This document shows positions 2,159 to 38,664 of a stretch of DNA of 64,000 nucleotides, one piece after another. The DNA comes from Escherichia coli (lineage in GTDB: Bacteria > Pseudomonadota > Gammaproteobacteria > Enterobacterales > Enterobacteriaceae). A program made the translations under genes and the position numbers. The notes under the pieces were generated by a model. That model was not told the DNA's origin, searched no databases, and saw nothing but the letters and a program-made list of their open reading frames with translations. The stretch lies in the NCBI RefSeq assembly GCF_003334385.1, contig NZ_QOWN01000018.1; one strand, 5' to 3'. The number at the start of each line of letters is the position of its first letter. Position 1 is the stretch's first letter.

Positions 2159-2227
2159 CGAACCCCCGATACGTTGCCGTATACACACTTTCCAGGCGTG
2201 CTCCTTCAGCCACTCGGACACCTCACC
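2140..2227 (-). tRNA. serX: tRNA-Ser (anticodon GGA), 88 nt with long variable arm and encoded CCA
   Basis: The reverse complement reads GGTGAGGTGTCCGAGTGGCTGAAGGAGCACGCCTGGAAAGTGTGTATACGGCAACGTATCGGGGGTTCGAATCCCCCCCTCACCGCCA. The anticodon loop is CTGGAAA. Confidence 0.95.
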
Positions 2228-4870: not shown

Positions 4871-5362
4871 ATGAACATACTTCTCTCTATTGCAATCACA
4901 ACAGGCATTCTCTCCGGTATCTGGGGATGGGTGGCTGTTTCCCTGGGCTTACTAAGCTGGGCGGGCTTCCTGGGCTGTACGGCCTACTTTGCCTGCCCGC
5001 AAGGTGGGCTGAAAGGGCTGGCGATCTCCGCTGCAACCCTGCTTAGTGGCGTGGTGTGGGCGATGGTCATTATTTACGGTAGTGCACTGGCACCACATCT
5101 GGAAATTCTCGGTTATGTCATAACCGGTATTGTCGCGTTTCTGATGTGTATTCAGGCCAAACAGCTGCTGCTTTCATTTGTTCCGGGGACGTTTATAGGC
5201 GCATGCGCGACGTTTTCCGGGCAGGGTGACTGGAAACTGGTGTTACCTTCGCTGGCGCTTGGGCTGATATTTGGTTACGCAATGAAAAACAGTGGCCTGT
5301 GGCTGGCGGCGCGTAGTGCAAAGACGGCGCACCGTGAGCAGGAAATCAAAAATAAAGCGTGA
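4871..5362 (+). CDS. ycdZ: inner-membrane protein (DUF1097 type)
   Basis: Hydrophobic ORF. Start trimmed to MNILLSIAITTG (163 aa) as in K-12 YcdZ. Confidence 0.85.
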   Translation: MNILLSIAITTGILSGIWGWVAVSLGLLSWAGFLGCTAYFACPQGGLKGLAISAATLLSGVVWAMVIIYGSALAPHLEILGYVITGIVAFLMCIQAKQLLLSFVPGTFIGACATFSGQGDWKLVLPSLALGLIFGYAMKNSGLWLAARSAKTAHREQEIKNKA

Positions 5363-7771: not shown

Positions 7772-8525
7772 GATGAAACCCCGCTTTTTTTATTGATCGC
7801 ACACCTGACAGCTGCCTCTAAAATAGAAGCACCAGAAGTACTGACAGATGTTGCACTGCTGTGTGTAGTAATAAATCAGCCCTAAATGGGTAAAATATAA
7901 AACTAATGGATTACATCTGATTTCAATCTAGCCATTACAAATCTTAAATCAAGTGTTAAACATGTAACTAAATGTAACTCGTTATATTAAAATGTTAACC
8001 TTAAGGTTTTATTAAGTTTAGAAATGATAGAAAAGTTGTACATTTGGTTTTTATTGCACAATTTTAAAAAATCATACAAATGGTGATAACTTACTAATAA
8101 TGCATATAAAAAATATTTCGGTGTAGTCCTTTCGTCATGTAAAACGTTCTTGTTTTTTCTCCACACCTCCGTGGACAATTTTTTACTGCAAAAAGACGAG
8201 GTTTGTCACGGCTTGTGCGCAAGACATATCGCAGCAATCAGCGACGGGCAAGAAGAATGACTGTCTGGTGCTTTTTGATAGCGGAAAACGGAGATTTAAA
8301 AGAAAACAAAATATTTTTTTGCGTAGATAACAGCGTATTTACGTGGGTTTTAATACTTTGGTATGAACTAAAAAAGAAAAATACAACGCGCGGGTGAGTT
8401 ATTAAAAATATTTCCGCAGACATACTTTCCATCGTAACGCAGCGTTAACAAAATACAGGTTGCGTTAACAACCAAGTTGAAATGATTTAATTTCTTAAAT
8501 GTACGACCAGGTCCAGGGTGACAAC
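7772..8525. promoter_or_regulatory. csgD-csgB divergent intergenic control region (long AT-rich, curved)
   Basis: About 750 bp of AT-rich non-coding DNA between the divergent csgDEFG and csgBAC operons. This is the known multi-regulator and sRNA-targeted region. Individual sites were not mapped here. Confidence 0.8.
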
Positions 8526-10394: not shown

Positions 10395-10928
10395 ATGAAA
10401 ACGCGTATTCATGTTGTGCAGGGTGATATTACCAAACTGGCCGTTGATGTGATTGTGAATGCGGCTAATCCGTCATTAATGGGAGGCGGCGGCGTCGATG
10501 GGGCCATTCATCGCGCAGCGGGTCCGGCCCTGCTGGATGCTTGTTTAAAAGTCAGGCAACAGCAGGGCGATTGCCCTACGGGGCATGCCGTTATTACGCT
10601 TGCAGGCGATCTTCCCGCTAAAGCCGTAGTGCACACCGTCGGGCCAGTCTGGCGTGGTGGTGAACAAAACGAAGACCAGCTTTTGCAGGATGCCTATCTC
10701 AATAGCCTACGACTGGTGGCGGCAAACAGCTATACGTCAGTGGCTTTTCCTGCAATCAGTACTGGGGTTTATGGTTACCCTCGTGCGGCAGCGGCTGAAA
10801 TCGCAGTAAAAACCGTTTCAGAATTTATTACCCGTCACGCTTTACCCGAACAGGTATACTTTGTCTGTTATGATGAAGAAAACGCCCACCTCTACGAAAG
10901 ACTCCTTACCCAACAAGGAGATGAATGA
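10395..10928 (+). CDS. ymdB: macrodomain O-acetyl-ADP-ribose deacetylase / RNase III modulator
   Basis: 177-aa ORF with the macro-domain motif [23 protein letters not shown]. Confidence 0.95.
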
Positions 10929-10929
10929 T

Positions 10930-12351
10930 TTGCCCCGGCTGGCGAGCGCGGTGCTGCCACTGTGTTCGCAACATCCCGGTCAGTGTGGCCTTTTTCCTCT
11001 GGAGAAAAGTCTGGATGCGTTTGCCGCCCGGTATCGTCTGGCCGAAATGGCAGAGCATACGCTCGATGTTCAGTATTACATCTGGCAGGACGATATGTCG
11101 GGTCGGTTACTGTTTTCCGCCCTGTTAGCCGCAGCAAAGCGTGGCGTTCGCGTCCGTTTGTTGCTGGACGACAACAATACGCCCGGACTTGACGACATTT
11201 TACGCTTGCTTGACAGTCATCCACGCATTGAAGTCCGGCTTTTTAATCCTTTCTCGTTTCGCTTGCTGCGTCCGCTTGGTTATATCACCGACTTTTCCCG
11301 TCTTAATCGCCGTATGCACAATAAAAGTTTCACTGTCGATGGCGTGGTGACCCTGGTGGGAGGACGAAATATTGGTGATGCCTATTTTGGAGCAGGGGAG
11401 GAGCCACTTTTTTCGGATTTAGATGTCATGGCAATAGGACCCGTGGTAGAGGACGTTGCCGATGATTTCGCCCGCTACTGGTATTGCAAATCGGTTTCAC
11501 CCTTACAGCAGGTGCTGGATGTCCCGGAGGGTGAAATGGCGGATCGCATCGAGTTACCCGCCTCCTGGCATAACGATGCCATGACGCATCGTTATTTACG
11601 CAAAATGGAATCCAGTCCATTTATAAATCATCTGGTTGATGGAACATTGCCGCTTATCTGGGCGAAGACACGTTTATTAAGTGATGATCCGGCGAAAGGG
11701 GAGGGCAAGGCAAAACGGCATTCACTGTTACCGCAGCGCCTGTTCGATATCATGGGCTCACCCAGTGAACGCATCGATATTATCTCTTCCTATTTTGTAC
11801 CGACACGCGCAGGTGTGGCGCAACTCTTACGGATGGTGAGAAAAGGGGTAAAGATTGCGATCCTAACCAATTCTCTTGCCGCTAACGATGTTGCTGTCGT
11901 CCATGCCGGATACGCGCGCTGGCGCAAAAAATTGCTCCGCTATGGCGTGGAATTATATGAACTCAAGCCGACGCGTGAACAAAGTAGTACGTTACACGAT
12001 CGCGGCATAACCGGTAATTCCGGAGCCAGCCTGCATGCTAAAACCTTTAGCATCGATGGTAAAACGGTGTTTATCGGCTCTTTCAATTTCGATCCGCGTT
12101 CAACATTGCTCAATACTGAAATGGGCTTCGTGATAGAGAGCGAAACGCTGGCACAGTTAATTGATAAACGCTTTATTCAGAGCCAGTATGATGCGGCCTG
12201 GCAGCTCCGTCTGGACAGGTGGGGACGGATCAACTGGGTTGATCGTCATGCAAAGAAAGAGATTATTCTCAAAAAAGAACCCGCCACCAGTTTCTGGAAG
12301 CGGGTTATGGTCAGACTGGCGTCGATATTGCCCGTGGAATGGTTATTGTAA
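10930..12351 (+). CDS. clsC: cardiolipin synthase C (phospholipase D family)
   Basis: Two HKD motifs (HNKSFTVDG, HAKTFSIDG). Start uncertain: TTG 10930 (473 aa, as I recall the K-12 annotation) or ATG 10921. The ORF track begins earlier at 10861. Confidence 0.9.
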   Translation: MPRLASAVLPLCSQHPGQCGLFPLEKSLDAFAARYRLAEMAEHTLDVQYYIWQDDMSGRLLFSALLAAAKRGVRVRLLLDDNNTPGLDDILRLLDSHPRIEVRLFNPFSFRLLRPLGYITDFSRLNRRMHNKSFTVDGVVTLVGGRNIGDAYFGAGEEPLFSDLDVMAIGPVVEDVADDFARYWYCKSVSPLQQVLDVPEGEMADRIELPASWHNDAMTHRYLRKMESSPFINHLVDGTLPLIWAKTRLLSDDPAKGEGKAKRHSLLPQRLFDIMGSPSERIDIISSYFVPTRAGVAQLLRMVRKGVKIAILTNSLAANDVAVVHAGYARWRKKLLRYGVELYELKPTREQSSTLHDRGITGNSGASLHAKTFSIDGKTVFIGSFNFDPRSTLLNTEMGFVIESETLAQLIDKRFIQSQYDAAWQLRLDRWGRINWVDRHAKKEIILKKEPATSFWKRVMVRLASILPVEWLL

Positions 12352-17991: not shown

Positions 17992-18090
17992 GCCTGATGC
18001 GCTACGCTTATCAGGCCTACATCGTTCCTGCAATTTATTGATTTTGCAAGACTTTGTGGGTCGGATAAGGCGTTCACGCCGCATCCGGCA
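17992..18090. repeat. REP/BIME elements
   Basis: GCCTGATGCGCTACGCTTATCAGGCCTAC and GTCGGATAAGGCGTTCACGCCGCATCCGGCA are classic REP palindromes. Confidence 0.9.
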
Positions 18091-18838: not shown

Positions 18839-19885
18839 TCAGTTCGATACCTGGGGTATTCGACGACGACGTAGACTGTTCCATGAATAGACTGCGTTGA
18901 ATAACACTACGCCAGCGGTGACGAGAAATACCGCTCTGAAACCGTAGTTCGCTGAAATCGCTGCTCCCATCAATGGTCCGGTAACGTTGCCAATATCACG
19001 AAACGATTGGTTATAGCTGAAGATACGCCCGGCGATCTGGTTGCTCGAGTTGTAAACCAACAGTGTCTGTACGGCGGGGAGTAGTGCACCATCGGCGGCA
19101 CCGAGCAAAAAACGTAAAATCCCAAGTTGCAATGGCGTCTGAACGTAAGACATTGGGATCAACAGCAGTACAGAAAAGATCAGCGCTGTAATCAGGATCT
19201 TTTCGGGTCCGATTCGATCGCCAAGTTTGCCGAGTCGTGGTGCACTTAGCAGAGCCGCCACGCCTGGCACCGAGGCGATCATGCCACTGATAAAGGCGAC
19301 GTTACTGACGTTACCCGCCAGTTCGCGGACATACAGCGTCAGAATGGGGGCAATTGAGCCCGTCGCCACCTGGATGATTAACGTAGTGACAAACAGGCTG
19401 AGTACCAGTTTCGGGTTTTTAAGTGATGTCACCACTTCCCGCATGTGCAGCATCTCTTTTTTGCTGACCGGCTGGAATTTTTCTCTGATGCAAAACAGGG
19501 TGACGAAAAAGCAGAGTATGAGCACACTGGCGGTAATAAAGAATACCGGACGTAAGCCGTAGCTATCGGCGAGCAGGCCGCCAGCCATTGGGCCGAGCAA
19601 CGCACCACTAACGCCGCCTGTGGAGAGCGTACCCAGCGCCCAGCCGCTTTTATTACGCGGTACTTGTGTGGCGATAAGAGCATTAGCGTTGGGGACAAAT
19701 CCGCCAAGTAACCCAAGAAGCGCCCGCAGGATCAAAAACTGCCAGATATTTTGTGCCAGCCCCATCAACACCATCACGATGCCCATGCCGAGGGCAGAGC
19801 GTAATAGCATGAGTTTTCGGCCTTTACGGTCGGCGAGTCCACCCCAAAACGGTGAGGCGATGGCCGAAAATAAAAATGTAATGCT
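18839..19885 (-). pseudogene. mdtG: mdtG 3-prime portion (MFS efflux transporter) cut off from its start by the insertion
   Basis: The frame reads ...[34 protein letters not shown]... to stop at 18839. It continues the 62-codon N-terminal piece at 31260-31441. Upstream of 19885 the frame hits a stop inside foreign DNA. Confidence 0.93.
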
Positions 19886-19907
19886 GATATTTGTTCCCTA
19901 AATACAC
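19864..19907. other. attL-type junction: mdtG arm / shared CTGA (proposed CT core 19884-19885) / element arm GATATTTGTTCCCTAAATACAC
   Basis: The host reading frame is lost within 19881-19887. The same CTGA occurs at the other junction (31260-31263). Confidence 0.75.
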
Positions 19908-20048
19908 CATGAGAACATACCTGTTAATAACAGGACAATATCAGGTGAATGATTATGCAATTCAACGGTGTTTTTCCAAGTATCTAAGCAGTTTTACACA
20001 GATTCTATGCAGTATCGGTATAGTCTCTTTTTAGCATAACTTATTGAT

Positions 20049-20080
20049 ATCTATAAAGAATCTGTGAAGTCTCTTTTCAG
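20049..20080 (+). repeat. left copy of a roughly 32-bp direct repeat ATCTATAAAG-A-ATCTGTGAAG-TCTCTTTTCAG flanking the small recombinase gene
   Basis: Aligns with 21162-21191 (ATCTTTAAAG-T-ATCTGTAAAG-ACTTTTAAG), about 25 of 32 positions, same orientation. Degenerate extra copies lie at about 20022-20037, 21127-21140 and 21229-21254. Confidence 0.7.
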
Positions 20081-20287
20081 GGTAAACTGTATCGTGTTAG
20101 TCGTCCCTCTCTCGACTCCTAGAAAAGTGCTATATACAGGGCTATATAACGATATATAGATAGTTGGTCACATGGTGTAACTATCAAGAAACTTAACGAT
20201 TTCCTACGTGAAAGTTAGAAAGTGATGGTTATAGTTACCCTCCTAAAATCTTCATAGCTCCTTCATAACCAGTCTTAAAAGGACTTC

Positions 20288-20393
20288 CTTATGAGACACT
20301 TTCAACGTAACGGTAGAATGCACCTTCCAAGTGTCTCATAAGCTTGTTTTTGAATTATGAGACAGCTAAACTTATGAGACCAACTTTTGAGAC
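20288..20393 (+). promoter_or_regulatory. cluster of five TTATGAGAC-type boxes, including a perfect 14-bp inverted repeat, directly upstream of the small serine recombinase gene
   Basis: Boxes lie at 20289-20297, 20333-20341 (inverted), 20355-20363, 20372-20380 and 20385-20393 (TTTTGAGAC). CTTATGAGACACTT (20288-20301) is the exact reverse complement of 20329-20342. A possible weak promoter TTGAAT-17-TATGAG overlaps the boxes. Confidence 0.6.
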
Positions 20394-20408
20394 TTCTTAG
20401 GGGGATGT

Positions 20409-20957
20409 ATGGCGGTGATTGGTTATTGCAGGGTATCAACACAAGACCAGACTGTAGACAACCAGAAACTACAGATAGAGAAGGTTCACAAGGTCGATAA
20501 ATGGTTTATTGATGAGGCTGTCTCAGGAGCTACAAAGGCCACCAGCAGAGATGGTTTTAGAGACATGATGAACTATGTAAGGTGTGACGATACGTTAGTT
20601 GTGGTAGCTATTGACCGTTTAGGGCGTAATACCGTTGATGTGCTCTCTAACGTGGAGGCACTACAGACTAAAGGTGTGAGGGTTGTTTCTCTACGTGAAG
20701 GTTTCGACTTATTAACACCAATCGGTAGAGCAATGCTTACTATGATGGCTGGTTTAGCTGACCTTGAAAAAGACCTTATCAGTGAACGTAGAAAGGCTGG
20801 TATTGAACGTGCTAAAGCTGAAGGGGTTCACATGGGGAGACCTGTAAAAGCTTCTTCAGAGACTGTAAAGATGCTTATCTCACAAGGTAAAACGAGGTTG
20901 CAGATTCAGGAAGAGCTAGGAATCTCTAGAGCAACTTATTACAGACTTGCTAAATAA
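20409..20957 (+). CDS. small serine recombinase (resolvase/invertase family) with C-terminal HTH
   Basis: 182 aa. N-terminal IGYCRVSTQDQ catalytic-serine motif, DRLGRN, and C-terminal GRP...GISRATYYRL HTH. AGGGGGA RBS 5 nt upstream. Confidence 0.9.
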   Translation: MAVIGYCRVSTQDQTVDNQKLQIEKVHKVDKWFIDEAVSGATKATSRDGFRDMMNYVRCDDTLVVVAIDRLGRNTVDVLSNVEALQTKGVRVVSLREGFDLLTPIGRAMLTMMAGLADLEKDLISERRKAGIERAKAEGVHMGRPVKASSETVKMLISQGKTRLQIQEELGISRATYYRLAK

Positions 20958-21161
20958 GTTACTGAATAGTTACATGGATGTAGCTGATATTTGGCTTTTT
21001 TGCAAAGGGGGTCACATAGCTGGTGTGACGGGTACTTAGCAGGTATAGACCTGTGATAGATATTTTCGAAGATTCGGGGAAGATGAGATTCAAAGAGGGC
21101 TAGTCATTTTTTATAAAAATTTTCAGAATCTGAAAAGTTACTGTACAGAATATATACAGAC

Positions 21162-21191
21162 ATCTTTAAAGTATCTGTAAAGACTTTTAAG
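21162..21191 (+). repeat. right copy of the direct repeat flanking the small recombinase gene
   Basis: See 20049-20080. Confidence 0.7.
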
Positions 21192-21300
21192 ATAAAAGAT
21201 AGATATCCAGAAAGGATATCCGTTTAGAAAGACTGTTAAGTATCTCTTAAAAGAGAGTAAACCTTGTCAATAGTGATTGCAATAAAAATTTTTATTTCTT

Positions 21301-21963
21301 ATGTCAATTGAGCATATTTTAATCGGGAAGCATCATGGGGGTTCTGATTACTGGAGAACTCCATTTTTGTTATTTAAGAATCTAAACTGTGAATATATTT
21401 TCACGCTGGATGGTGCTGCAACTAAGCACGATACGTTATTACCCCGCTTTACGGATGATATTCACAATCAATCGTGGATTGGCGAAAGGGTGTTCTGTAA
21501 CCCGCCGTACAGCGATATTCCGTCGTTCCTCATAAAAGCGTCTGAGGCAGATTTAGCGGTATTCCTGATACCGTATAGAGCCAACACCAGCTACTGGCTT
21601 AGGCACATTTACAGCAATAACCACTGTCATGAAATCCGTATTCTTCATCGTGCAGTTAAATACCTTCCACCAGCAGGCCATAACGGGCTTACTATTCGTT
21701 CACCGTTTCCAAGTGCAGTCATTGTTTTTAAAAAAGAACCACGCAGGCATGAAATTACGCAGATGATTTGCTGTGCTGATACATTGCTACCGTTAACCAT
21801 CATTAACAGAGGAGGCTTAAGAGGAAGACCCACCATTTACCCACCTGAGACGCTCGACAGCTTCATAAAACTATACAGGCAAGGAAAACCCATTAAGTGC
21901 ATTGCAGATGCTCTCAGAATGCCTCTGAGCACGTCATACAGGATTGCGCAAAGGTTGAGCTAA
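21301..21963 (+). CDS. phage-type DNA N6-adenine methyltransferase (NPPY motif) fused to a resolvase-type C-terminal HTH
   Basis: 220 aa. SDYWRTPFLLF...LDGAA...VFCNPPYS is typical of the phage Dam-like family. The C-terminus GRPTIYPPETLDSFIKLYRQGKPIKCIADALRMPLSTSYRI resembles the DNA-binding tail of resolvases. No obvious SD, so the start is uncertain. Confidence 0.7.
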   Translation: MSIEHILIGKHHGGSDYWRTPFLLFKNLNCEYIFTLDGAATKHDTLLPRFTDDIHNQSWIGERVFCNPPYSDIPSFLIKASEADLAVFLIPYRANTSYWLRHIYSNNHCHEIRILHRAVKYLPPAGHNGLTIRSPFPSAVIVFKKEPRRHEITQMICCADTLLPLTIINRGGLRGRPTIYPPETLDSFIKLYRQGKPIKCIADALRMPLSTSYRIAQRLS

Positions 21964-22067
21964 AATTCTCATAAATATGGTCATTTACAAGACAGGTGAT
22001 TCAGATATTAAGAAGTATCCCTGTGAACAATAAATGACCAATCAGTAATTATTCTGTGAAATAATTG

Positions 22068-22096
22068 TTGCAATTTATAATCACATCTGTTATAGT
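22068..22096 (+). promoter_or_regulatory. sigma70-type promoter TTGCAA-17-TATAGT upstream of the replication gene leader
   Basis: Hexamers at 22068-22073 and 22091-22096 with a 17-nt spacer. Confidence 0.55.
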
Positions 22097-22274
22097 TTCT
22101 ATATGGGCTGATAAAAAAGTTCATGTCTTGAAGTGGTAACACTTGGGGAGGTGTCAGATGGTTGGCGTATAAAACCTCTCATTCATGGTATACCTCAGCG
22201 TTTTAATCATCGTACTGTTTCAGGCATGGACTTCTTTATCAGTCCATCAATCCCCCAGATATTTTAATCACACA

Positions 22275-22304
22275 GGCTAATCGGTTTTATCCGGTTGGCC
22301 TTTT
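22275..22304 (+). terminator. terminator-like hairpin (possible attenuator, or end of a roughly 200-nt leader RNA) 20 nt before the rep start
   Basis: GGCTAATCGG-TTTTAT-CCGGTTGGCC (10-bp stem with two G-U pairs) followed by TTTT. Confidence 0.5.
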
Positions 22305-22325
22305 CACATATGAGGTATTTTATGA

Positions 22326-23294
22326 ATGAAAAAAGAAACTAATGCTTTTATTATGGTAGATAAACGAGTTGCACAATTCCCTAAAACATTAAAGCCAATT
22401 GACCGCTTGGTATATTTCACTATGCTGGATGGTGCTGATTATTACGAATCTAAGTTCGGGAGATATGCACCAAGTATTGACTATTTGATGGTTATGTCTG
22501 GTGCTACACGTAATACAGTTATTGACTCTCTGAAAAGACTTGAGTCACACAGGCTTATTGAGAAGACCAATATCAAAGGGCAGCAAAGTATTTTTAAAGT
22601 ATTCACGTTAGATGAGCGTCCAGAAGTCTTATCAGAACCTACCCTTGATGAGCGTCGTAGAGTCAAATTATCAGGTCAACCAGAATCTGACACTAACCCA
22701 ACCAAAAATTGGTTACCTACCCAACCAGAATTTGGTTACCTACCTAACCAGAAATTGGTTACATGTAATACTGAATATAAAGACAAAAATATAAAAACTA
22801 AAGAAGAAAGACTAAAAGGGAACTTTGAAGAAGAATCTCTTAAGAAGGGAGCTTCGCTCTGTGATTCACATGAATGTGATATTAAAGAAGATGACTTTCT
22901 TTCTTTGGATGAATTAAATGATTTTCTCTCTATGAATGAATCTGACCTTGATAGTGAAGCTACTAAAGAGGTCGTTAAAAAGGAAGATAAAATCTCTGAT
23001 GTGATTGCTAGTAGTGACCATAAAAACACACAGTGCCCCGCCACTGATGATGAGATGGACCCCTTCGATGATGATGAAGAGGATGAAGAGTCAGAACGTG
23101 AAAAAGCCATTAAGAGGGTAGAGAAGAAAAAGAGATTCGAGCTTGCAAGACAAAAGAACAAAGTATCGGGTTTAGACCCATTCGATGACAGTGAAGATGA
23201 TTATTATCTTTCACCGAGAAAGAAACAAACCCAGGATGACAAGAAGCAAAAAATTAAACCGAAGATGTATTTTGCTGGTGGAGGTATGCGCTAA
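22326..23294 (+). CDS. putative replication initiator (N-terminal winged-helix-like domain, iteron-encoding linker, acidic/Lys-rich C-terminus)
   Basis: 322 aa with GAGG RBS. Its architecture parallels lambda O: the origin iterons lie inside the gene. Function is inferred, not recognised by homology. Confidence 0.55.
   Translation: MKKETNAFIMVDKRVAQFPKTLKPIDRLVYFTMLDGADYYESKFGRYAPSIDYLMVMSGATRNTVIDSLKRLESHRLIEKTNIKGQQSIFKVFTLDERPEVLSEPTLDERRRVKLSGQPESDTNPTKNWLPTQPEFGYLPNQKLVTCNTEYKDKNIKTKEERLKGNFEEESLKKGASLCDSHECDIKEDDFLSLDELNDFLSMNESDLDSEATKEVVKKEDKISDVIASSDHKNTQCPATDDEMDPFDDDEEDEESEREKAIKRVEKKKRFELARQKNKVSGLDPFDDSEDDYYLSPRKKQTQDDKKQKIKPKMYFAGGGMR
22678..22810. other. putative origin of replication: half-iteron plus three 23-bp-spaced palindromic iterons AACCA-N5-TGGTT, then an AT-rich tract
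   Basis: AACCAAAAATTGGTT at 22700-22714, AACCAGAATTTGGTT at 22723-22737, AACCAGAAATTGGTT at 22746-22760, and a half-site AACCAGAAT at 22678. The A/T-rich run 22761-22810 follows. Confidence 0.65.
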
Positions 23295-23584
23295 TGAGAG
23301 AATATAACGGTGAAAAACGATACAAAGATTATCTATTAAGGCGCTACAGCATTTCTCGTGAAGGTCATCTTCTGAAAGATACTCATGGGGAGGTTTACCG
23401 GATTCGACCGAAGAAGGAAGGAAAGAATTATTTCTTTTTTGATGGTGTGACAGATTTAAAGATTGACGCTTTGAGGTTTGCAGTGCTGTATCATTATGAT
23501 ATCTGGGATTCGGTCCACCAGCTACGATTAAAAGACGGTGACCCCGGTAATCTGAGGGCCACCAATATCATCACAAAACGTTAG
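23294..23584 (+). CDS. small protein of unknown function (weak NUMOD4/HNH_3-like pattern)
   Basis: 96 aa, ATGA-type overlap with the rep stop. YSISREGHLL...LKDGDPGNLRATNI faintly recalls homing-endonuclease-associated DNA-binding modules. Confidence 0.45.
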   Translation: MREYNGEKRYKDYLLRRYSISREGHLLKDTHGEVYRIRPKKEGKNYFFFDGVTDLKIDALRFAVLYHYDIWDSVHQLRLKDGDPGNLRATNIITKR

Positions 23585-23766
23585 TTTGTTTTACCATCAT
23601 CAATCGTAATTGTGATTTCATATTTGAAAAGCTTAATGCTGAAATTGAATCGTGTACTTTTGGCGATAATCATTTTTAAAAGCTGATACACCAGAAGCAC
23701 CAGAAACACAAAGCAACCTAAGCTTGCGAATCTGTGAGATTCAGCAATTGTTTCAAGAAAGCCCAT
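23581..23766 (-). CDS. 61-aa single-pass membrane protein (toxin-, holin- or exclusion-like candidate)
   Basis: It has its own promoter TTGTCA-17-TATTAT and SD AAGGGGA. Hydrophobic core LGCFVFLVLLVYQLLKMII. It is the only minus-strand gene in the element besides the integrase. Confidence 0.5.
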   Translation of the reverse strand: MGFLETIAESHRFASLGCFVFLVLLVYQLLKMIIAKSTRFNFSIKLFKYEITITIDDGKTN

Positions 23767-23816
23767 TAATTCCCCTTATTTATCAAAGGGAATGACCTGT
23801 ATCAGCCCCTATAACC

Positions 23817-23867
23817 ATAATATCATGTAAATGAGATGTTGACAATATGTTAAATAAATGTTAAGAT
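23817..23867. promoter_or_regulatory. back-to-back divergent sigma70 promoters with overlapping -35 hexamers
   Basis: Plus strand: TTGACA (23839-23844)-17-TAAGAT (23862-23867). Minus strand: TTGTCA (complement of 23840-23845)-17-TATTAT (complement of 23817-23822). Confidence 0.65.
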
Positions 23868-23903
23868 TGTAGTATGAGTAAGAGATTTAAGGAGATTTTT
23901 ACA

Positions 23904-24194
23904 ATGACTCACACAGTTACGCGCCTTTTGCCAGAGGCATTTGAACGACTGGCAGCAATCAAAGCCAAATACCCTGATATGAAGCACACGGCGCTTGTTG
24001 GAGAGCTTTTAAAAGAGTCGGTAGCCCTGACCCCTTTCGATAACGTTAAGGGCGTTGCAGAGGGTTCTAAGGCCATCAGAATCACAACAGGCCAACTGGA
24101 ACTACTCAAAGCGCAGTCCGCAGTAGCAGGTTGCTCAATGATTCAGGTGTTAAGCACTAAGGTTCATCAACTGGCGGATAAATTGGAGGTTTAA
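23904..24194 (+). CDS. putative tandem ribbon-helix-helix DNA-binding protein
   Basis: AAGGAG RBS 9 nt before ATG 23904 (the ORF track start 23874 is less likely). Two beta-alpha-alpha-like segments: HTVTRLLPEAFERLAAIKAKY... and AIRITTGQLELLKAQSAVAG.... Confidence 0.5.
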   Translation: MTHTVTRLLPEAFERLAAIKAKYPDMKHTALVGELLKESVALTPFDNVKGVAEGSKAIRITTGQLELLKAQSAVAGCSMIQVLSTKVHQLADKLEV

Positions 24195-24580
24195 TGTATG
24201 ACTTTTATAAACATCGTGACCATTTGGTAAGATTTGACGGTAGAGTCTGGAAAGACATAACAGAAACCAATAAACCCAAGTTTACCCACCAGCAATTAGC
24301 CTCAAGATTTGATATCTGGACTGAAGCACAAAAAGATAATGGTGATTTCGAGTTTATCAGGGGTTTTGATTATGCTTACGAAGATGACCTTAAAGACGCC
24401 ATTAAATTAATTGAAAATTTTAATGGAAATAATTCTGGTGACAAACACAAAGCCAATGGTAATCGGTATGACAGGGAGTTAATTCTTGATGCCATTTCCA
24501 GAGGTCAATCACAAAGTTATATTTCTGAGAAATACGGCTTATCACGTAGTCAATACTACAAGATTAAAGCGTCTGTGTAA
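24194..24580 (+). CDS. hypothetical protein with resolvase-type C-terminal HTH
   Basis: 128 aa, TAATG overlap with the previous gene. C-terminus ISRGQSQSYISEKYGLSRSQYYKI. Confidence 0.55.
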   Translation: MYDFYKHRDHLVRFDGRVWKDITETNKPKFTHQQLASRFDIWTEAQKDNGDFEFIRGFDYAYEDDLKDAIKLIENFNGNNSGDKHKANGNRYDRELILDAISRGQSQSYISEKYGLSRSQYYKIKASV

Positions 24581-24717
24581 GCCTGTGAGAATGAGTGAGA
24601 CTCAAAGATGAGCTACCCTATTACTAAGGTGTCTCACTCCCTCTGTAACCCGCATGGTTACTGGCCTCAGAATGGCTATTTTGGCAGATTTAAGATGTGT
24701 TTTAGAGGAATTTAAAA

Positions 24718-25041
24718 ATGAACAACTTCCCATTACAAATTTTCGTTGATAACGACACCGCTCTGATGATTCAGGCTTTCACTGATTCCGGTGTATCAAT
24801 TGACTTTGACAGGCTGTTAGAGTTGATGGCTGATAATGCAGAAAACATCTCTGACTTTATTCAGTCGGTGGAGTTTAACGAGCCTCGAATGATGCTACCA
24901 ATTAAAGACAGCAACATGAAAAGATTGGTTATCGAGCAAACGAACAAATACAGCGTTAGCCCTGAAAGATATCTCAAGGCAGCTATAGCAATTTTGTGCG
25001 CTGACAATATTTTGGTGACGGATTCGAAGGTGGTGCATTAA
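24718..25041 (+). CDS. hypothetical protein
   Basis: 107 aa, AGAGGA RBS. No recognisable motif. Confidence 0.5.
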   Translation: MNNFPLQIFVDNDTALMIQAFTDSGVSIDFDRLLELMADNAENISDFIQSVEFNEPRMMLPIKDSNMKRLVIEQTNKYSVSPERYLKAAIAILCADNILVTDSKVVH

Positions 25042-25118
25042 TGGGCTTAATAATTGCTTGGACAGCTTTGGGTTTATTTGTTGGTTGCTGGGTAGGTAAC
25101 ACAGTAAATAAGAATTGA
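25041..25118 (+). CDS. possible 25-aa hydrophobic peptide (MGLIIAWTALGLFVGCWVGNTVNKN), translationally coupled
   Basis: TAATG overlap with the preceding stop. Below the ORF-track size cut-off and found by reading. Confidence 0.3.
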   Translation: MGLIIAWTALGLFVGCWVGNTVNKN

Positions 25119-25143
25119 TGTTGCCAATCTGTTAAAAAGCTGT

Positions 25144-25172
25144 TGACAAATAACCTTAAGCATGACATAATT
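25144..25172 (+). promoter_or_regulatory. sigma70-type promoter TTGACA-17-CATAAT heading the late/structural operon leader
   Basis: Hexamers at 25144-25149 and 25167-25172. Confidence 0.6.
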
Positions 25173-25535
25173 TTAATTATGGGAGAGTAATTCTCTCTTA
25201 TATTTCTTTCAATAATCCGATGGATGGATGGATATTCTGAGTTGGTGAGGTATGTTCTATACCGAACATTCTGAAAGGTGCAATGCTTTTCGCTACATGA
25301 CCTCTTATATAACCTGAGAGGTCATCTCGAAAAGTACTCTTGTTCATTCGTTATTGAATCCTTTAGATGTTTTAATTTCTTCACCTTATGAATAGCCCTT
25401 TATAAGAAATTATCTAGGGCTATTCAGTTTTTAAAAAGCATACTTGGCAAACCGCCTTTTAAGTCTCTTCTAAGTTCGTAGGCTGTCAGGTGTGCTTTTT
25501 AAAAACTGAATATACTTAGAAGAGGAAATGAAATA
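25173..25535 (+). promoter_or_regulatory. roughly 360-nt non-coding, hairpin-dense leader (candidate cis-regulatory RNA or packaging/recognition site)
   Basis: No ORF with an RBS. Hairpins at 25184-25198, 25253-25270, 25298-25326 (9 bp) and 25391-25426 (10 bp). A 20-bp perfect inverted repeat (25422-25441 and 25494-25513) overlaps the last hairpin. Confidence 0.55.
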
Positions 25536-26246
25536 ATGGCAAATGACATTTATATTAGTGGAAGAAAAATTGATAGCTTCGGTGACTGGTCGCCACAGAC
25601 TGAACATCCAGCTATCGTTATTCAGCGTAAAGAACACGATGCGAGAATTGAGCTTGAGCAAGAGCTAAAGATGTCACCAAAGCAAATTACCTTTGTGTCT
25701 CCTGAGCCTCAAGAGATGCCTGATGTATGCAAGAGTGAAGCATTGCTTGAGCTTGAAAAGAAATATTTCCCAGCTTTAAAAGCACAGCGTCTTAGATTAG
25801 ATGACGCTTACAGCAAAGTTACCCTGATGCAATCAGCTATTGAACCGTCAGAATTTGAGATTCAGGATGAATTGTCACAGAAACCATTTGTTTATTACCA
25901 ATATGCAGACAATGATGGTTTTGGTACTTTTCCTGAGAATATCCCAGACGCGATTAGTAGTCTTCCTGATGGATATCGAATTGTGAAGATGGTTAAAGCT
26001 TCAAGGGGTGCTGGTCAATTTATTTATATGACCAATAAGAGCGATGAAGAACTCGCTGAACTTGCTAGACAGAACATCTTGGCATCACGTAACAAGCAGC
26101 TTGATAGTGCTAAGTTGTATCTCTCAAGAGAGCTTCAGGCTATGAAAGAGCTTGTTAGTGAATATGAGTCGCAGAAGAAGATTGCTATGCAAGCTGATAT
26201 TGAGCAGTTAGTGAAGATTTCTCAGAAGTATAGTAAAGCACTTTAA
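25536..26246 (+). CDS. hypothetical protein with coiled-coil C-terminus
   Basis: 236 aa, GAGGAA RBS. No recognisable family. Confidence 0.55.
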   Translation: MANDIYISGRKIDSFGDWSPQTEHPAIVIQRKEHDARIELEQELKMSPKQITFVSPEPQEMPDVCKSEALLELEKKYFPALKAQRLRLDDAYSKVTLMQSAIEPSEFEIQDELSQKPFVYYQYADNDGFGTFPENIPDAISSLPDGYRIVKMVKASRGAGQFIYMTNKSDEELAELARQNILASRNKQLDSAKLYLSRELQAMKELVSEYESQKKIAMQADIEQLVKISQKYSKAL

Positions 26247-26270
26247 TTATGAATTAAGAAGAGGTGATTA

Positions 26271-26480
26271 ATGTTTGAAGAACGTTTAGAGACTATTCGG
26301 TCTGTTTGTGAAAACTTAAAGTTACAAACCAAGCCAGCCTTAAGAATTAAAACCAAACATCAAATTATCACCTCACACAAACCAAAAACACGCAAGATTC
26401 CAAAGTGGTGTATTGACCGTATTCCTTCTGATGCTCAAATCATAGGTGAAACGGAATTACATTATCTTGTCCGACATTAA
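26271..26480 (+). CDS. hypothetical basic protein
   Basis: 69 aa, GAGGTG RBS. Confidence 0.45.
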   Translation: MFEERLETIRSVCENLKLQTKPALRIKTKHQIITSHKPKTRKIPKWCIDRIPSDAQIIGETELHYLVRH

Positions 26481-26503
26481 AAATTGGTTGGGTAAAATCA
26501 ACG

Positions 26504-26544
26504 GGAGAGATTATCGAGTGACATCGGTAGTTTCTCCTTTTTTT
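26504..26544 (+). terminator. imperfect hairpin plus T-run (possible terminator or pause) before the tape-measure gene
   Basis: GGAGAGA...TTTCTCC outer stem followed by T7. Confidence 0.4.
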
Positions 26545-26577
26545 GTATATGAACACTTAAGAGGTGAAAAAATATGA

Positions 26578-28749
26578 ATGGCACAGTTTAAAGTTGATGA
26601 TTTTCTGATTGAGCTAGGTTTTAACTCTCAGAGGGTTTTAAAAGGTCTGGAAAAAGCCGAGAAACAAACGATGCAGGTAGCATCACGAATTGAGAAGCGA
26701 TTGAATAAAGCTTTTAAAGTTAACCCTACGCCTTTAAATGATTCTCTCAAGGTCATGGAAAGAAATGTCGATAAAACTGTTTCCAAGATTGAGCAGCGTC
26801 TTAAAAACACTAAAGCGTTTAAGATTAAAACGGAAATTGAGGATACTTTAAAGCCACTTAAACAACCGAGACAGCCACGAATTAGCGGCAACAGAGCAAT
26901 CACAGCAGCACATAGTGTGAATATGTCTAAGCTTGGTGATATTAATCCGCTGATGGCTAAAATGTTTAAAGCACAGTATTACAGCTTAAGCGGTAAGGCT
27001 GGTAATATTGGAAGTGAAAAGTTTAACGCTGAACTTGCAAAATTAAATCAATCTCTTCGTGAAACGTTGAATAAACTCAGGTCACAGACAAAGACCGCCA
27101 GCATCAGCAAAGTAAATGATTCCTTTAATAATCTTGCAAGCAATGCAATTAAGTTATCTGGTGCATTTTACTCTGTGATGGGTGCTCTTAACGCTTACAA
27201 GGCCATTATGAATGCAGGTCTTAAACGAGATTCCGCACAGAGAGCCGCTAAGTTTGTACTTGGTGATAAAGCATCTGAAGCTGAAACATTTATCAGGGGA
27301 CTGGCTGACAAGACAGGTCTTAATATCTCTGAAGGACTATCAAGCTACGCTAAGTTTGCAGCAGGTGCTCAGGGTTCTATGTCACAGGAACAGACACAGG
27401 AGCTATTTGGTAATGCAACGGCTATGAGCCGTTTAATGGGGCTTTCTAACGATGAACTAAACGGCATTTTGAAAGCTTTTGAGCAGATGGCTTCTAAGGG
27501 CAAGATTCAGGCTGAAGAATTACGTGGGCAGTTAGGTGACCGTATGGCTGGTGCATTTAAGCTATTCGCTGAAGCATTGGGTATGACTGCTACAGAGCTT
27601 GATGCAGCCATGAAAAACGGGAAGGTACTTTCCGCTGATACTCTCCCTAAAGTCGCTAAACAGATGGGCTTGATGATTGATAAAGCGGGTGGCTGGGCTG
27701 AAGTCGCTAAGAGCACCCAGACAGCTTTAGGTAAGTTAGCAAACAACTGGGATGATACGATGGTTAAAATCTTCTCAGGTTCACAGGATGAGTTAAACGG
27801 CTTCTTATCCAGCCTGGGTAGCCTGCTTAGTGAAATGGGGATGAGTTCTTCTATCGCTGGTGATGCTATCGGTGGACTTATCGACATGCTTAAAGCTGGT
27901 GTAGATGATATTCGCGTATTCAATAACACCATTGAAGGCTGGATTTTACAGGTTAAAAAGTTCTATTACAGCCTTGATGACACTAAACGAAAACTACTTG
28001 ATGAAGTCGGTGATGGTTTTATCAATTTTGTCAAAGGTCTTGCTATAGCGTTATCTGCAAAGACGCTATTCAGTGCCACTACAGGGGTGATGAACCTGAC
28101 AAGAGCAATCACAACGTTAGGTACAAGAGCTAATCAGGTGGCTGGTCAGGTAACTACTGGTAAAGGTGGTGGAAAACTGAAAGGTGTAGCTGGTGGTGTA
28201 GGTAGTGCTCTTGCAATTGGTTATGCTGATGACGGTTATGAAACAGCGTTAGCATTAGCTTCAATGATTCCACAAATCAGAGGTGTCACCCTTGGTTTAT
28301 ATGCATTGAAGAAAGCACTGGATTTTATGAATCAGGAAGTAGTCAAAAACGCTAATATGCATCCATCTGGGGTAGGTGTGGGTAGTGACTTTAATCCTGT
28401 GTATTCTGGTGACCCTAATAAACCGAATATGATTAACGAAGGATGGAGTAAAATTTTTAATTCAATGGGTGAATTGTTTAACAATGCCACAATGAATATT
28501 GCAAGATTCAATCATCCAGAATTAAACAACATTAAGCAAGATTCAGCATTAACGAGTGCAGATATTCAGAGTCTGAGGGATGAAATTAGTGCTTTGAGTA
28601 AACGTATTCAGGAGCCTGTGAAAGTTTCACTTGGTGGTGAAGTTGCCATTAAACCAGATGAAACCAGCTTTATGACCTTTAGCAGTAATATCTACGACCA
28701 ATATGCAGAAGCTACGCTATTAAGTTCATCATTCCCAGAAGATGATTGA
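26578..28749 (+). CDS. phage tail tape-measure protein
   Basis: 723 aa with a coiled-coil N-terminus. The central tape-measure signature is GKIQAEELRGQLGDRMAGAFKLFAEALGMTATELDAAMKNGKVLSADTLPKVAKQMG. Gly-rich hydrophobic segments lie near the C-terminus. Confidence 0.8.
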   Translation: MAQFKVDDFLIELGFNSQRVLKGLEKAEKQTMQVASRIEKRLNKAFKVNPTPLNDSLKVMERNVDKTVSKIEQRLKNTKAFKIKTEIEDTLKPLKQPRQPRISGNRAITAAHSVNMSKLGDINPLMAKMFKAQYYSLSGKAGNIGSEKFNAELAKLNQSLRETLNKLRSQTKTASISKVNDSFNNLASNAIKLSGAFYSVMGALNAYKAIMNAGLKRDSAQRAAKFVLGDKASEAETFIRGLADKTGLNISEGLSSYAKFAAGAQGSMSQEQTQELFGNATAMSRLMGLSNDELNGILKAFEQMASKGKIQAEELRGQLGDRMAGAFKLFAEALGMTATELDAAMKNGKVLSADTLPKVAKQMGLMIDKAGGWAEVAKSTQTALGKLANNWDDTMVKIFSGSQDELNGFLSSLGSLLSEMGMSSSIAGDAIGGLIDMLKAGVDDIRVFNNTIEGWILQVKKFYYSLDDTKRKLLDEVGDGFINFVKGLAIALSAKTLFSATTGVMNLTRAITTLGTRANQVAGQVTTGKGGGKLKGVAGGVGSALAIGYADDGYETALALASMIPQIRGVTLGLYALKKALDFMNQEVVKNANMHPSGVGVGSDFNPVYSGDPNKPNMINEGWSKIFNSMGELFNNATMNIARFNHPELNNIKQDSALTSADIQSLRDEISALSKRIQEPVKVSLGGEVAIKPDETSFMTFSSNIYDQYAEATLLSSSFPEDD

Positions 28750-28905
28750 TTTAACGGTGTTCTACGTGAATAAAGCAAAGTTAATACCCGCACTAAAAAT
28801 TATTTTTTACGTAGCACACGCTTAACAGAGAAAATACTTATATATCAAAGGCTTGGTTAAAAATGATTAAAATACACTAAGCCTTTGAAATCAAAGGAGA
28901 ATTTA

Positions 28906-29694
28906 ATGATTTACTCTAATCAACTTCGTTACAGTGGCAAAGATGGTGTTTACTTCCATCTACAAGGCCAACCAGATAATTTCTTGTCACTATCAGCAAC
29001 AGAGAACATGGAATTTGACAGCCCTATGATGGTGACCACTCAAAATATGCAATCAGGGCAGACTGTAACAGATAATGTAATGCGTTCACCCAGAACTATT
29101 TCAATCAGTGGTGTGGTTGTAGTTGGTGAATCCGGTAGTATCCTCATCTCAAGAGATAATAAGCTGGTGGAAAACTTCATCGACACTCTTGAAAGCTGGC
29201 GTGACCAGAAGCAAATTATTTCGGTCATCTGTAAAGACGGAATTAAAATTGATGATTCTATTATTACGAGTTTTAAAGCCTCTAAAGATGTTGGTATTTC
29301 AAATGGTCTAAGAGTCCAGCTAACTTTTCAGGAAATTAACTTTAAAGCAATTGTAGGGCAAACTGATGTTTCAGCAGCTACTGGCAAAGCTGCCACCACG
29401 AATGACGGTGGTGTGACCAGTAAGAAGAATGCAGGTAACGTGACCACTGAACGCAATAACGCGCCTATGCTATCGTGCAAAGAGTTAATGAATATTAGCG
29501 ATGTATCCGGTTACGTTCCGGCTATCAGAAATGATATTCTCGATGCTCAGATTAAGTGCAATAAAGCTTGGAAGCTGGACTATTCAGACTTAACAGAAGC
29601 TGAAAAAACCAACGTCACCAATGCTAATAGTAACGCTGGTCGAGTAGCTTCAAAGCTTAAAAAGTACTCAGTGAATCCTAATAAGAGATACTAA
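28906..29694 (+). CDS. putative distal-tail (Dit-like) / baseplate-hub protein
   Basis: AAGGAG RBS before ATG 28906 (the track start 28885 is TTG). The N-terminal pattern [36 protein letters not shown] resembles Dit-like tail proteins, and it sits directly after the tape-measure gene. Confidence 0.45.
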
Positions 29695-31220
29695 ATCTCT
29701 ACTACATCAACATCTATTAAACCCCTCTCAGTGACTTCAGAAAGCGACTGTATAGCCTCTGTAACGTTGTCTGAGGGGTTTTCTGTTATAGGTAGGTCAA
29801 TTACCTTGCCGTTGTGAAAAGTCACTTTACAGCGACGTTTAGCGGCATCTATAACTATTTCTTTGAGTACGCCCTTGATAAGTAGCTGTGTCTCTATCAT
29901 CCCTTCCTTTGTTGTCCTGTCAATATCTTTGAGGCTTCCAGTTGTGATGGCCTTTATCCGCTGTGTTTCCTCTTCGATATCATGATTGAGTTTTGATAGC
30001 GCATTCTTCATATCACGTAATTTCTCTGTGATAATTGTCATGTCATCGAGTTCAATAGCGAGTTCTGCCATTTTTGAGATTTTACGCTGCAAATCTTCAC
30101 GCTGTAATTTAAGGCTATCAATAGTGTCAGTATTTTCAGTTTCAAAACGGTCGCATAATGCGAGCATGTAGAGAATAGTTGCATCCGTTTGCTTACGACT
30201 GATAGCCTTTGCACTACACCTGTTAGCTGAACGATTAGGGCATCTGTACATCCCAAAACGTTTTAAGGCATATCCACCAAGAACAATAGTAGCCCCACAC
30301 TCAGAACATTTGATGATACCCCTGAACAAGTTGACTGATAGCGGATTACTTGATACAGAAGCCCTACCATATTGCCCTGTGTTCAGTTGCTGTACTCGAT
30401 AGAATAGTGACTCACTGATTATTGCGGGGTAGTAACCCTGAACTTCTTCACGTCCAGCAGGTGTGAAACATCCAATCACAGCACGATTTCTGAGTAGTTT
30501 CTTTACAGCAGTATCAGACCACCCCTTTTGTTTGGGTGTGTATTGATTCAATGACAAGTGGCCTTCATCGTTTAAAGTTCTGGTGATAGCCCAAAAGCTT
30601 AAACCCTGTAATCTCAGGTCAAATGCTCGTTTAACAACTTCCACTTTATCGGGGATGATAGTGAATGTTCGACGGTCATCATTCAGCCTTAACCATGCAG
30701 GACAACGCCTAGATACCTTGATACCTTCGGAGATGAGTTCTTTTTTACGGTTCCATGCAGCTTGGACACGCTCAGACTTCCTCAGACTTTCCTCATGCGC
30801 CCGCTGCATTATCAGAATGCTTTTAATCAGGGATAACGGGTCTTTTAAACTTTCTCGTGTGTAATGTTCACCATCGGACAGGGTGACTACATCTACACCA
30901 GCCCTTAAGATACGGCGTAATAGCTCAGAAGCAATATCAATATCCTGACGTGACAGACGGTCTAAACTCTCGATTAGTAGCGTATCACCAGCTTTAACAA
31001 GCCCTTTCTCGATAGCGGTTAGAAAGTCACCTAGACCACCTTTCAGGTGCTTACCACTAAAAGCACTTTTCCCCAAATCTTTAAAGCTCAAGGATGAATC
31101 CAAGTAAAACTCAGGGTTCTTATCAAGCCAGTCAGTAACCAGCTTAGATTGTCTGCGTACAGAGTCCCCTTTTAGTTGTCGTTCACTTGAAAATCTGATG
31201 TAGCTGATTGCCCGTCTCAT
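29691..31220 (-). CDS. large serine recombinase (integrase)
   Basis: About 509 aa from ATG 31220 (the track begins at TTG 31226). [11 protein letters not shown] catalytic motif, DRLSRQ, a recombinase domain, a zinc-ribbon CSECG...[11 protein letters not shown] and a long coiled-coil. It lies 40 bp from the junction. Confidence 0.92.
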
Positions 31221-31239
31221 ATTCAATACCTAAAATGAT

Positions 31240-38559: not shown

Positions 38560-38664
38560 TAATCTCTATGCTCCGGCTGAAGGGATGTTTTTGCCGGACA
38601 CAAAGGATAAGCGGAAACGTTTTCCTTTGCACGAAAAATAAAGGGCGCGAATGCGCCCTCGTGA

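Follow-up and report, generated by a model that had tools for sequence, protein, structure and literature searches.

What does a hairpin-dense leader of roughly 360 nucleotides (nt) do in front of an operon of phage tail genes on a chromosomal island of Escherichia coli? This question was raised by a stretch of 64,000 nt (RefSeq assembly GCF_003334385.1, contig NZ_QOWN01000018.1), hereafter referred to as the window, in which an island of ~11.5 kb is inserted in mdtG and spans roughly 19.8-31.2 kb (about 19811-31226). The leader lies within this island, between a sigma-70 promoter and the first gene of the operon (Table 1). A first-pass annotation of the locus had considered an RNA-level regulatory leader, perhaps responding to a helper-phage factor, as well as a packaging site acting at the DNA level. 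The RNA interpretation was borne out, since the conserved features of the leader are RNA structures, terminator-like hairpins among them, which stand directly before the Shine-Dalgarno (SD) sequence of the first gene. The last of these structures is a long hairpin whose apical loop has complements in the SD region of the island's own operon and in translation-initiation regions of virulent Felixounavirus phages. Based on these complementarities we propose, with about even confidence, that the hairpin would serve as a co-transcribed antisense module linking the translation of the island with that of a helper phage.

The promoter, hairpins and repeats listed in the first-pass annotation are all present in the window, at coordinates mostly 1 nt lower than those given there, and the predicted structure is beyond chance. 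The 371 nt from 25175 to 25545 folded on the + strand with -120.6 kcal/mol, whereas dinucleotide shuffles gave -78.6 ± 5.1 kcal/mol and none of 100 did as well (z = -8.3), and the - strand of the same interval reached a z of -5.2. The terminal hairpin contains a perfect inverted repeat of 20 base pairs (bp), located at 25421-25440 and 25493-25512, which as RNA extends to 29 pairs (25421-25449 with 25484-25512) when G-U is allowed.

Relatives of the leader were gathered in two sets, the first consisting of 11 loci obtained by protein or BLAST, and the second of about 110 loci obtained by exact 20-mer search in IMG/VR and metagenomes. Both sets together comprised 99 distinct leaders of 320-632 nt. 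Whereas the 20-mer and TTGACAAA are invariant by construction in the second set, both were also perfect in the 11 loci that had not been selected by them, some of which encode a downstream protein only 60% identical. The terminal hairpins fall into at least six sequence classes (A to F, the sixth found in locus L129) in which the arms differ and the architecture is the same, the window belonging to class A. Where the parse worked, the stems of the relatives had about 24 to 32 pairs.

RNAalifold analysis of 29 sequences of classes A to E gave a terminal stem of 19 pairs in which 98.0% of the cells were paired and 11 pairs had changes on both sides. None of 500 shuffles reached the observed values, and pairing dropped to 38-50% when the partner was slid by 1-3 columns. 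Because six of these pairs are U-G or G-U in many sequences and C-A mismatches are rare, selection on the terminal hairpin acts on + strand RNA and not on a DNA palindrome. Conservation of pairing in relatives is not restricted to this hairpin; the central hairpin P2, its alternative pairing P0 and the 5' hairpin covary too.

In the window, the loop segment CTCTTCTAAGT (25465-25475) is perfectly complementary over 11 nt to the SD region ACTTAGAAGAG (25514-25524), or over 12 nt if a G-U pair one position further 5' is counted. This property is shared by every class: an uninterrupted stretch of 9-12 nt in the apical loop of 30-36 nt is the complement of the SD region ahead of the first gene. Three types of loop:SD pairs, in which both partners have changed in concert, were distinguished: type I (CUCUUCUAAGU:ACUUAGAAGAG) in classes A, B and E, type II (UUCACCUCU:AGAGGUGAA) in classes C and D, and type III (UUUCCUAUU:AAUAGGAAA) in L129. 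Pairings across types were weaker than those within a type. Out of 2000 trials, shuffled loops matched the observed run 2-23 times in classes A, B, D and E and about 220-245 times in class C. Collectively, this pattern of complementarity supports that the predicted loop-SD interaction is real.

The loops were also searched against the genome of Felixounavirus Bas63 (80 kb). The class A loop, which is that of the window, is antisense over 15 nt without a mismatch (CUCUUCUAAGUUCGU) to Bas63 11452-11466, corresponding to positions -28 to -14 from the ATG of the tape-measure gene and situated directly 5' of its SD. This match had a BLAST E value of 0.024 when the whole leader was compared with the 80 kb, and 12 of 3000 shuffled loops found one as good anywhere in that genome. 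An identical 70-nt context of the tape-measure target was present in 21 IMG/VR contigs, mostly of 73-94 kb, and all class A loop variants examined retain 12-15 nt of the match.

The class C loop would pair with a different site, Bas63 5020-5044, through 14 bp, a 3x2 internal loop and 9 bp. Spanned by the resulting duplex are AGGUGA, the AUG and four initial codons at an internal start of the prohead-protease gene, which is in frame and begins a reading frame of 155 codons. This target is identical in Felixounavirus, Suspvirus and Mooglevirus. For the 14-mer alone, 39 of 3000 shuffles did as well; chance becomes far less likely once the neighbouring 9-mer and the location on a start site are considered. 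The internal SD plus ATG, AGGTGAAGAAATGACTGAACAAG, is perfectly conserved in the prohead-protease gene of Ounavirinae (Bas63; L134 5020-5497) and unannotated in the records examined; it is probably the start of a nested scaffold protein.

Predicted duplexes were stronger with the phage than with the island's own site, both for class A (-27.8 versus -21.0 kcal/mol) and for class C (-35.7 versus -17.9 kcal/mol). Given that the island tape-measure genes have the SD GAGGTGAA whichever leader class precedes the operon, type I loops would spare the island's own tape-measure gene. Leader class and the initiation region of the island tape-measure gene did not covary. The response to a helper-phage factor put forward in the first-pass annotation thus gains unexpected support from loop complementarity to Felixounavirus late-gene translation-initiation regions.

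According to the model that we favour, the near-consensus sigma-70 promoter would produce a leader RNA composed of a 5' cap hairpin, the central domain, terminator-like hairpins and the terminal hairpin, and we infer that one to three terminator-like hairpins stop most transcripts. The terminal stem of 29-32 bp, placed directly before the ribosome-binding site, would display the ~34-nt loop, and processing may take place, for instance by RNase III cutting of the long stem. The loop would then pair with the island's own first-gene initiation region and, over a longer and stronger duplex, with helper late mRNA, the targets being the tape-measure gene for the window's class A and the SD and AUG of the prohead-protease internal start for class C. 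Such pairing would lower translation of the helper genes, the island tape-measure gene with its different SD would escape, and island-operon translation would, by mutual titration, become coupled to the level of helper late mRNA. As to the direction of the effect, repression of the helper tape-measure or scaffold start appears most likely.

We can only tentatively extend this model to a programmable antisense leader hairpin, in which differing loops would be aimed at helper starts and, the match of the loop to the island's own ribosome-binding site being the weaker one, helper late mRNA would trigger the island operon in the manner of a toehold-like infection sensor. Under such an arrangement the island's own tape measure and tube initiator, along with a coiled-coil protein, would all be supplied by the transcript that carries the hairpin.

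Several points weigh against the antisense model linking island and helper. The whole of the case for it is drawn from sequence. Among the genomes examined, a statistically convincing phage target was found for two of the six loop classes only (A and C): classes B and E share with the tape-measure site just a 10-12-nt core (10 nt for class B, which is common), and Bas63 offers no convincing target to classes D and F. Among the IMG/VR matches listed for the class B 14-mer pattern, chance ones saturated the result. When duplex energies were scanned genome-wide against Bas63, the tape-measure site was not singled out from a heavy-tailed background, and the best energy match for loop A was an intergenic site at Bas63 79753-79774 (L203 49753-49774) with -30.6 kcal/mol and about two mismatches in 22 nt.

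The self-pairing of the loop calls for similar caution, as its covariation with the SD amounts to only two or three independent events. Geometry is a further difficulty. The SD segment begins 0-22 nt past the stem base, and a stem of 24-32 bp is estimated to measure about 70-90 Angstrom; by this estimate, a loop on an intact stem cannot reach the adjacent SD in cis. Because the stem is long and the spacer short, the loop would reach the SD only if the stem partly opens or if separate molecules pair. Moreover, the first-gene initiation region of the island resembles that of the phage tape-measure gene (ACTTAGAAGAG...TAATGGCA), and the class A match could be partly due to common descent together with selection for self-pairing. 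Shared descent cannot account for the 14-nt segment of class C.

These difficulties bring up the alternative that the leader acts in cis only. Terminators would attenuate transcription, the SD would be masked by the loop or by a CU-rich segment just 5' of the terminator-like hairpin t2, and the operon would stay silent until opened by an antiterminator, processing or a helicase; the phage complementarity would be a relic of a phage-derived initiation region and its anti-SD. The position of the element directly before the SD speaks for this alternative, and so do the + strand terminator-like hairpins (about 0.3-0.9 expected by chance), the covarying loop-SD complementarity, the similarity of the island initiation region to that of the phage tape-measure gene, and the alternative pairings P0 and P1 of the central domain. 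Nested folding also predicted the SD to be paired with the CU-rich segment in 86 of 95 leaders, with a mean P(unpaired) of 0.24, both figures being without a shuffled-leader control. Purely cis action leaves unexplained, however, that phage duplexes are 7-18 kcal/mol stronger than self duplexes and that the 14-nt class C segment pairs with the phage AUG and first codons, for which the island target has no counterpart. An antiterminator-like protein was not recognised among the island genes either. In particular, the small proteins encoded upstream (96, 106, 128 and 107 amino acids, aa) gave no significant Pfam, PHROG or NCBIfam match that would indicate a Q-type antiterminator, only weak helix-turn-helix (HTH) similarity, remote homology being possible. 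Of the antitermination or attenuation device suggested in the first-pass annotation, terminator-like hairpins are present, but neither a conserved leader peptide nor an upstream antiterminator structure was found. Overall, we regard an exclusively cis-acting leader as rather unlikely.

Helper mRNA could instead act as an inducer only. The loop or a processed hairpin would block the island operon until helper late mRNA captures the loop by strand displacement and frees the SD, so that tail genes are made only late in helper infection. The complementarities described above count for this reading too. Compared with the self-pairing segment, the phage targets do add pairing, 4 nt of it in class A and a single-stranded stretch of 14 nt in class C, additions of the kind that a toehold requires, and a post-transcriptional trigger would be useful behind a promoter that looks constitutive. 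Nevertheless, the SD lies outside the hairpin, cis pairing with an intact stem is sterically implausible, and no trigger was detected for classes B, D, E and F. We know of no natural example of such a toehold-like sensor and consider it quite unlikely. Lower still is the probability we give to a mere RNase III processing or stability element that would set the mature 5' end of the operon mRNA irrespective of the loop sequence. The stem, with 20 consecutive Watson-Crick pairs and 29 in all between leader and first SD, has the size expected of an RNase III substrate (double-stranded, about 20 bp or more), and its pairing is strongly conserved; yet a long loop of 30-36 nt with class-specific complementarity to initiation regions beyond chance makes this explanation very improbable. 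A site acting as DNA, whether pac/cos, a recombinase or invertase site or an operator, might be suspected from a perfect palindrome-like repeat of 20 bp in an island that encodes both an invertase and a large serine recombinase. The arms vary by class with compensatory changes and yet stay paired, with G-U favoured over C-A, and blastn of 25100-25560 against 50,697 phage records returned nothing. The pac/cos site of the first-pass annotation was rejected on these grounds, as was an invertible DNA switch, the spacer having the same orientation in all 99 distinct leaders, and we leave scarcely any probability to a DNA-level role.

Some additional observations were made on the sequences compared with the phage. 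The segment ATTTCTTCACCT (25375-25386), just 5' of t2, is a 12-nt complement of AGGTGAAGAAAT, which comprises SD and start at the internal start of the phage protease gene, and is at the same time the predicted cis partner of the island SD; its BLAST E value to the phage site was 1.5, so chance is possible. The intergenic Bas63 site 79753-79774 reads ACTTAGAAGATAACTTAAAAGG and lies between the divergent bas63_0128 and bas63_0129, in a region where CTTTTAAG/CTTAAAAG motifs abound. The tail-tube gene of the phage itself contains an anti-initiation segment (Bas63 10591-10607), which was taken as coincidence, as it is not conserved in Moogle.

Comparison of the 99 distinct relatives showed the leader to be a mosaic of modules, some of them optional (Table 1). 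Always present are the promoter, the 5'-terminal hairpin, the central domain (GAAAGGUGCAAUGCUUUUCG and P2), t2 with its U-run, the long terminal hairpin and the SD. The absence of a credible open reading frame (ORF) noted in the first-pass annotation held across these relatives, in which no leader ORF is conserved in frame or length. The longest ones encode 17 to 87 aa, the peptides starting at a core ATG or GTG have 5 to 46 aa, and 2-nt indels break the frame; a coding region was therefore rejected, and with it a hidden conserved small ORF as an explanation of the region.

Distant islands, whose downstream protein is 25-42% identical, have the same type of promoter followed by a hairpin-dense leader of 390-460 nt. 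In one of them (L128) the leader sequence is entirely different, yet its fold has a z of -7.6. Conversely, locus L131 (5495-6003) carries a class A leader nearly identical to that of the window in front of a gene whose product is only 27% identical by phmmer. Since L131 keeps its leader before such a divergent product and distant islands keep the architecture, the leader is a conserved cassette that recombines independently of the gene in front of which it stands. The Rfam/Infernal scan proposed in the first-pass annotation produced no matching family: none reached the gathering score in the window leader or in the leaders of five related loci, and cmscan of 25000-25700 at E up to 10 gave 12 weak matches, mostly microRNA precursors, C4 not being among them.

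Table 1. Features of the leader, the operon downstream of it and known RNAs elsewhere in the window.
Feature	Position	Strand	Description
Sigma-70 promoter	25143-25171	+	TTGACA 25143-25148, 17-nt spacer, CATAAT 25166-25171, extended -10 TG 25163-25164
5'-terminal stem-loop	25178-25202	+	GGGAGAG/CUCUCUU core, 10 pairs, U-rich tail, at predicted transcript start
(GATG)3 microsatellite	25219-25230	+	2 to 5 copies in relatives; some carry another module here
Optional hairpin module	25250-25270	+	GGTAT/ATACC or ATGTTC/GAACAT (25252-25257 with 25264-25269); only in a subset of relatives
Central conserved domain	25273-25335	+	Invariant GAAAGGTGCAATGCTTTTCG 25273-25292, hairpin P2, alternative pairings P0/P1
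Hairpin P2	25297-25305 with 25317-25325	+	Arms ATGACCTCT/AGAGGTCAT
Hairpin t2	25389-25432	+	17-nt arms 25389-25405/25410-25426, GC-rich core AGCCCU/AGGGCU, then GUUUUU; resembles an intrinsic terminator
Terminal long hairpin	25421-25512	+	5' arm 25421-25449, 34-nt apical loop 25450-25483, 3' arm 25484-25512
Loop antisense segment	25465-25479	+	CTCTTCTAAGTTCGT, complementary to island SD region and Felixounavirus tape-measure initiation region
First-gene translation-initiation region	25514-25538	+	ACTTAGAAGAGG (SD GAGG), spacer, ATG at 25536
Operon	25536-29694	+	236-aa coiled-coil protein 25536-26246; 69-aa protein 26271-26480
Operon, continued		+	Tape-measure protein 26578-28749; 269-aa tube-initiator/Dit-like protein 28885-29694
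tRNA-Ser(GGA)	2140-2227		Known RNA
ES056	7827-7918		Known RNA
ES036	18013-18055		Known RNA
PyrC leader	38560-38609		Known RNA
rne 5' UTR (untranslated region) element	60344-60680		Known RNA
SraB	62541-62709		Known RNA

The promoter matches 11 of 12 consensus positions and is the sole 11-of-12 match and the best promoter-like site in 24500-26300. It is identical in the 11 relatives chosen by protein or BLAST, and distant islands have TTGACA-17-TATAAT or CATAGT. Three TGTT motifs with 11-bp spacing (TGTTgccaatcTGTTaaaaagcTGTTgaca) at 25116-25142 run into the -35 hexamer; the stretch is nearly invariant in relatives, and this array could be an operator or an UP-like element. Immediately before the promoter lies an ORF for a 25-aa hydrophobic peptide (MGLIIAWTALGLFVGCWVGNTVNKN, 25042-25119), which overlaps the stop codon of the upstream gene (TAATG) and is kept with substitutions in relatives.

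The consensus of the 5' stem-loop has 7 pairs, two of them changed on both sides and several of them G-U. Since its U-tail is absent in many relatives, we consider a 5' stabiliser hairpin more likely than a terminator. Besides the (GATG)n run, a second microsatellite, (CATT)n, occurs in relatives at the position of window 25342-25355; its copy number varies, as it does for (GATG)n (2-5 copies). In the central domain, GCUUUUC has two possible partners, the upstream GAAAGGU (P0) and the downstream CGAAAAGU at 25328-25335 (P1), and the minimum-energy fold contains both P1 and P2. P2 and P0 together comprise 18 pairs, 9 with changes on both sides, and P2 occurs in at least five compensated versions.

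The inner arms of t2 are GAATAGCCCT/AGGGCTATTC, at 25390-25399 and 25416-25425. Its core and the trailing U-run are kept in all classes, and its loop is large in many relatives. The competition between t2 and the long hairpin, described in the first-pass annotation as two mutually exclusive structures, has a basis in the 5-nt overlap of the window, but in most relatives the two share only the U-tract after the AGGGC stem. As a switch it fails, because the competitor lies downstream of the terminator and so cannot stop termination during transcription. What is kept is adjacency: the U-tract of a terminator-like hairpin doubles as the base of the hairpin that follows. In longer leaders this arrangement occurs one more time, with a second t2-type hairpin that was flagged by the terminator scan.

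The 'structural operon' of the first-pass annotation is a tail module, consisting of a tape measure, a tube initiator and two proteins of no known function. The tape-measure protein shares 32% identity with its counterpart in Felixounavirus Bas63. For the 269-aa protein, identity is about 66% to proteins of virulent Felixounavirus phages, Bas63 being one example; the Bas63 homologue, gp18, has been named as tube initiator of the baseplate hub (PMC12609058). NCBI records call the 236-aa product of the first gene a 'transposase'. This protein belongs to a narrow family (21 representatives) and gave no Pfam, PHROG or NCBIfam match, and tblastn in phages came back empty. Its AlphaFold model (pLDDT, the predicted local distance difference test, 80.7), a coiled-coil hairpin with a small alpha/beta domain, matched generic coiled coils only. 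With no family match, no phage homologue and a generic coiled-coil model, the 'transposase' label has no support and is probably wrong; a role as scaffold or chaperone is no more than a guess. Comparison of the 236-aa and 69-aa proteins with phage tail chaperones found no homology.

From left to right, the island encodes a DNA invertase, a Dam-type methyltransferase, a replication-initiator-like HTH protein, several small proteins and the 25-aa hydrophobic peptide, followed by the leader, the 236-aa, 69-aa, tape-measure and 269-aa proteins and, on the opposite strand, a large serine recombinase. Capsid and terminase genes are absent from the gene content of ~19811-31226. It is thus a capsid-less element with tail-nucleation genes of a virulent phage group, and resembles a satellite or defence island, as yet undescribed, that would be tied to virulent Felix-O1-like phages (Ounavirinae); none of the papers searched dealt with the island or its sequences. 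The surrounding window is an E. coli-like chromosome in which rne, SraB, the pyrC leader, the flg region, mdoGH and msyB are present. The leader region was matched in 444 of 5426 complete E. coli genomes, with island copies at several insertion sites; related copies were also seen at other sites, such as yciI/tonB. In contig L126 (11,280 bp, SRR22802630), whose length is the island size, the serine recombinase gene adjoins left-end island genes, an arrangement that suggests an excised circular or tandem form of the island. The invertase gene (window 20217-20998) lies on the + strand here, whereas other islands (L002 and L124 were compared) have it on the - strand; an inversion was rejected, as the DNA is not an inverted copy but a different cassette.

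Elements with part of this design are known from other mobile elements. The c4 RNA of P1/P7 and the CI RNA of P4 (Rfam C4) are leader-encoded, co-oriented antisense RNAs, found on phages and satellites of enterobacteria, whose loops are complementary to a ribosome-binding region further down the same transcript. Like them, the island element is co-oriented with, and located in the leader of, the operon that it would control, with loop 25465-25475 complementary to the SD region 25514-25524. Unlike them, it has no match to the C4 model (E up to 10), forms one very long hairpin instead of the c4 fold, and carries a loop that also matches helper-phage mRNAs. Long hairpins before a ribosome-binding site, the processing of which alters translation, are found in the lambda N leader (RNase III hairpin) and in the inter-cistronic R sites of T7. 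The island likewise has a long RNA hairpin between leader and first ribosome-binding site, but the loops of the lambda N and T7 hairpins are, to our knowledge, not known as antisense to another genome.

In lambdoid late leaders, such as the PR' to tR' 6S RNA and StxS of Stx phages, the terminated leader can itself be a small RNA (sRNA). The island shares with them a constitutive-looking strong promoter and a short leader with terminator-like hairpins before morphogenesis genes; it differs in that no Q-like gene was recognised in it and in its terminal antisense hairpin, which has no lambdoid counterpart. DicF of the Qin prophage is an antisense RNA cut from a prophage operon transcript that blocks the initiation region of host ftsZ in trans. 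Here, too, the putative antisense RNA is contained in an operon transcript of a mobile element, but it has neither sequence nor structure similarity to DicF, which targets a host gene.

The closest functional precedent is SviR, an sRNA of the Vibrio cholerae satellite PLE, which reduces translation of its targets in ICP1, a putative structural protein among them, and affects PLE mRNAs (bioRxiv 10.1101/2022.04.08.487710). In both cases a satellite RNA would interact with helper and satellite transcripts, the interaction being a predicted one for the island, where complementarity to helper initiation regions beyond chance concerns loop classes A and C. Whereas SviR acts in trans as an sRNA, in another host and with another helper and satellite family, the island element is part of the 5' UTR of an operon.

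If our proposal is true, this would be the second known case of satellite-helper regulation via RNA after SviR of PLE, the first in E. coli and the first within an operon leader, and the exchangeable loops would resemble a modular targeting system. Even the conservative reading leaves a new, well-supported cis-regulatory RNA motif that is missing from Rfam. The leader region, found in 8% of complete E. coli genomes, marks an undescribed island family carrying tail-nucleation genes of virulent Ounavirinae. Typing and therapy make wide use of these phages, whose performance could be influenced by the island.

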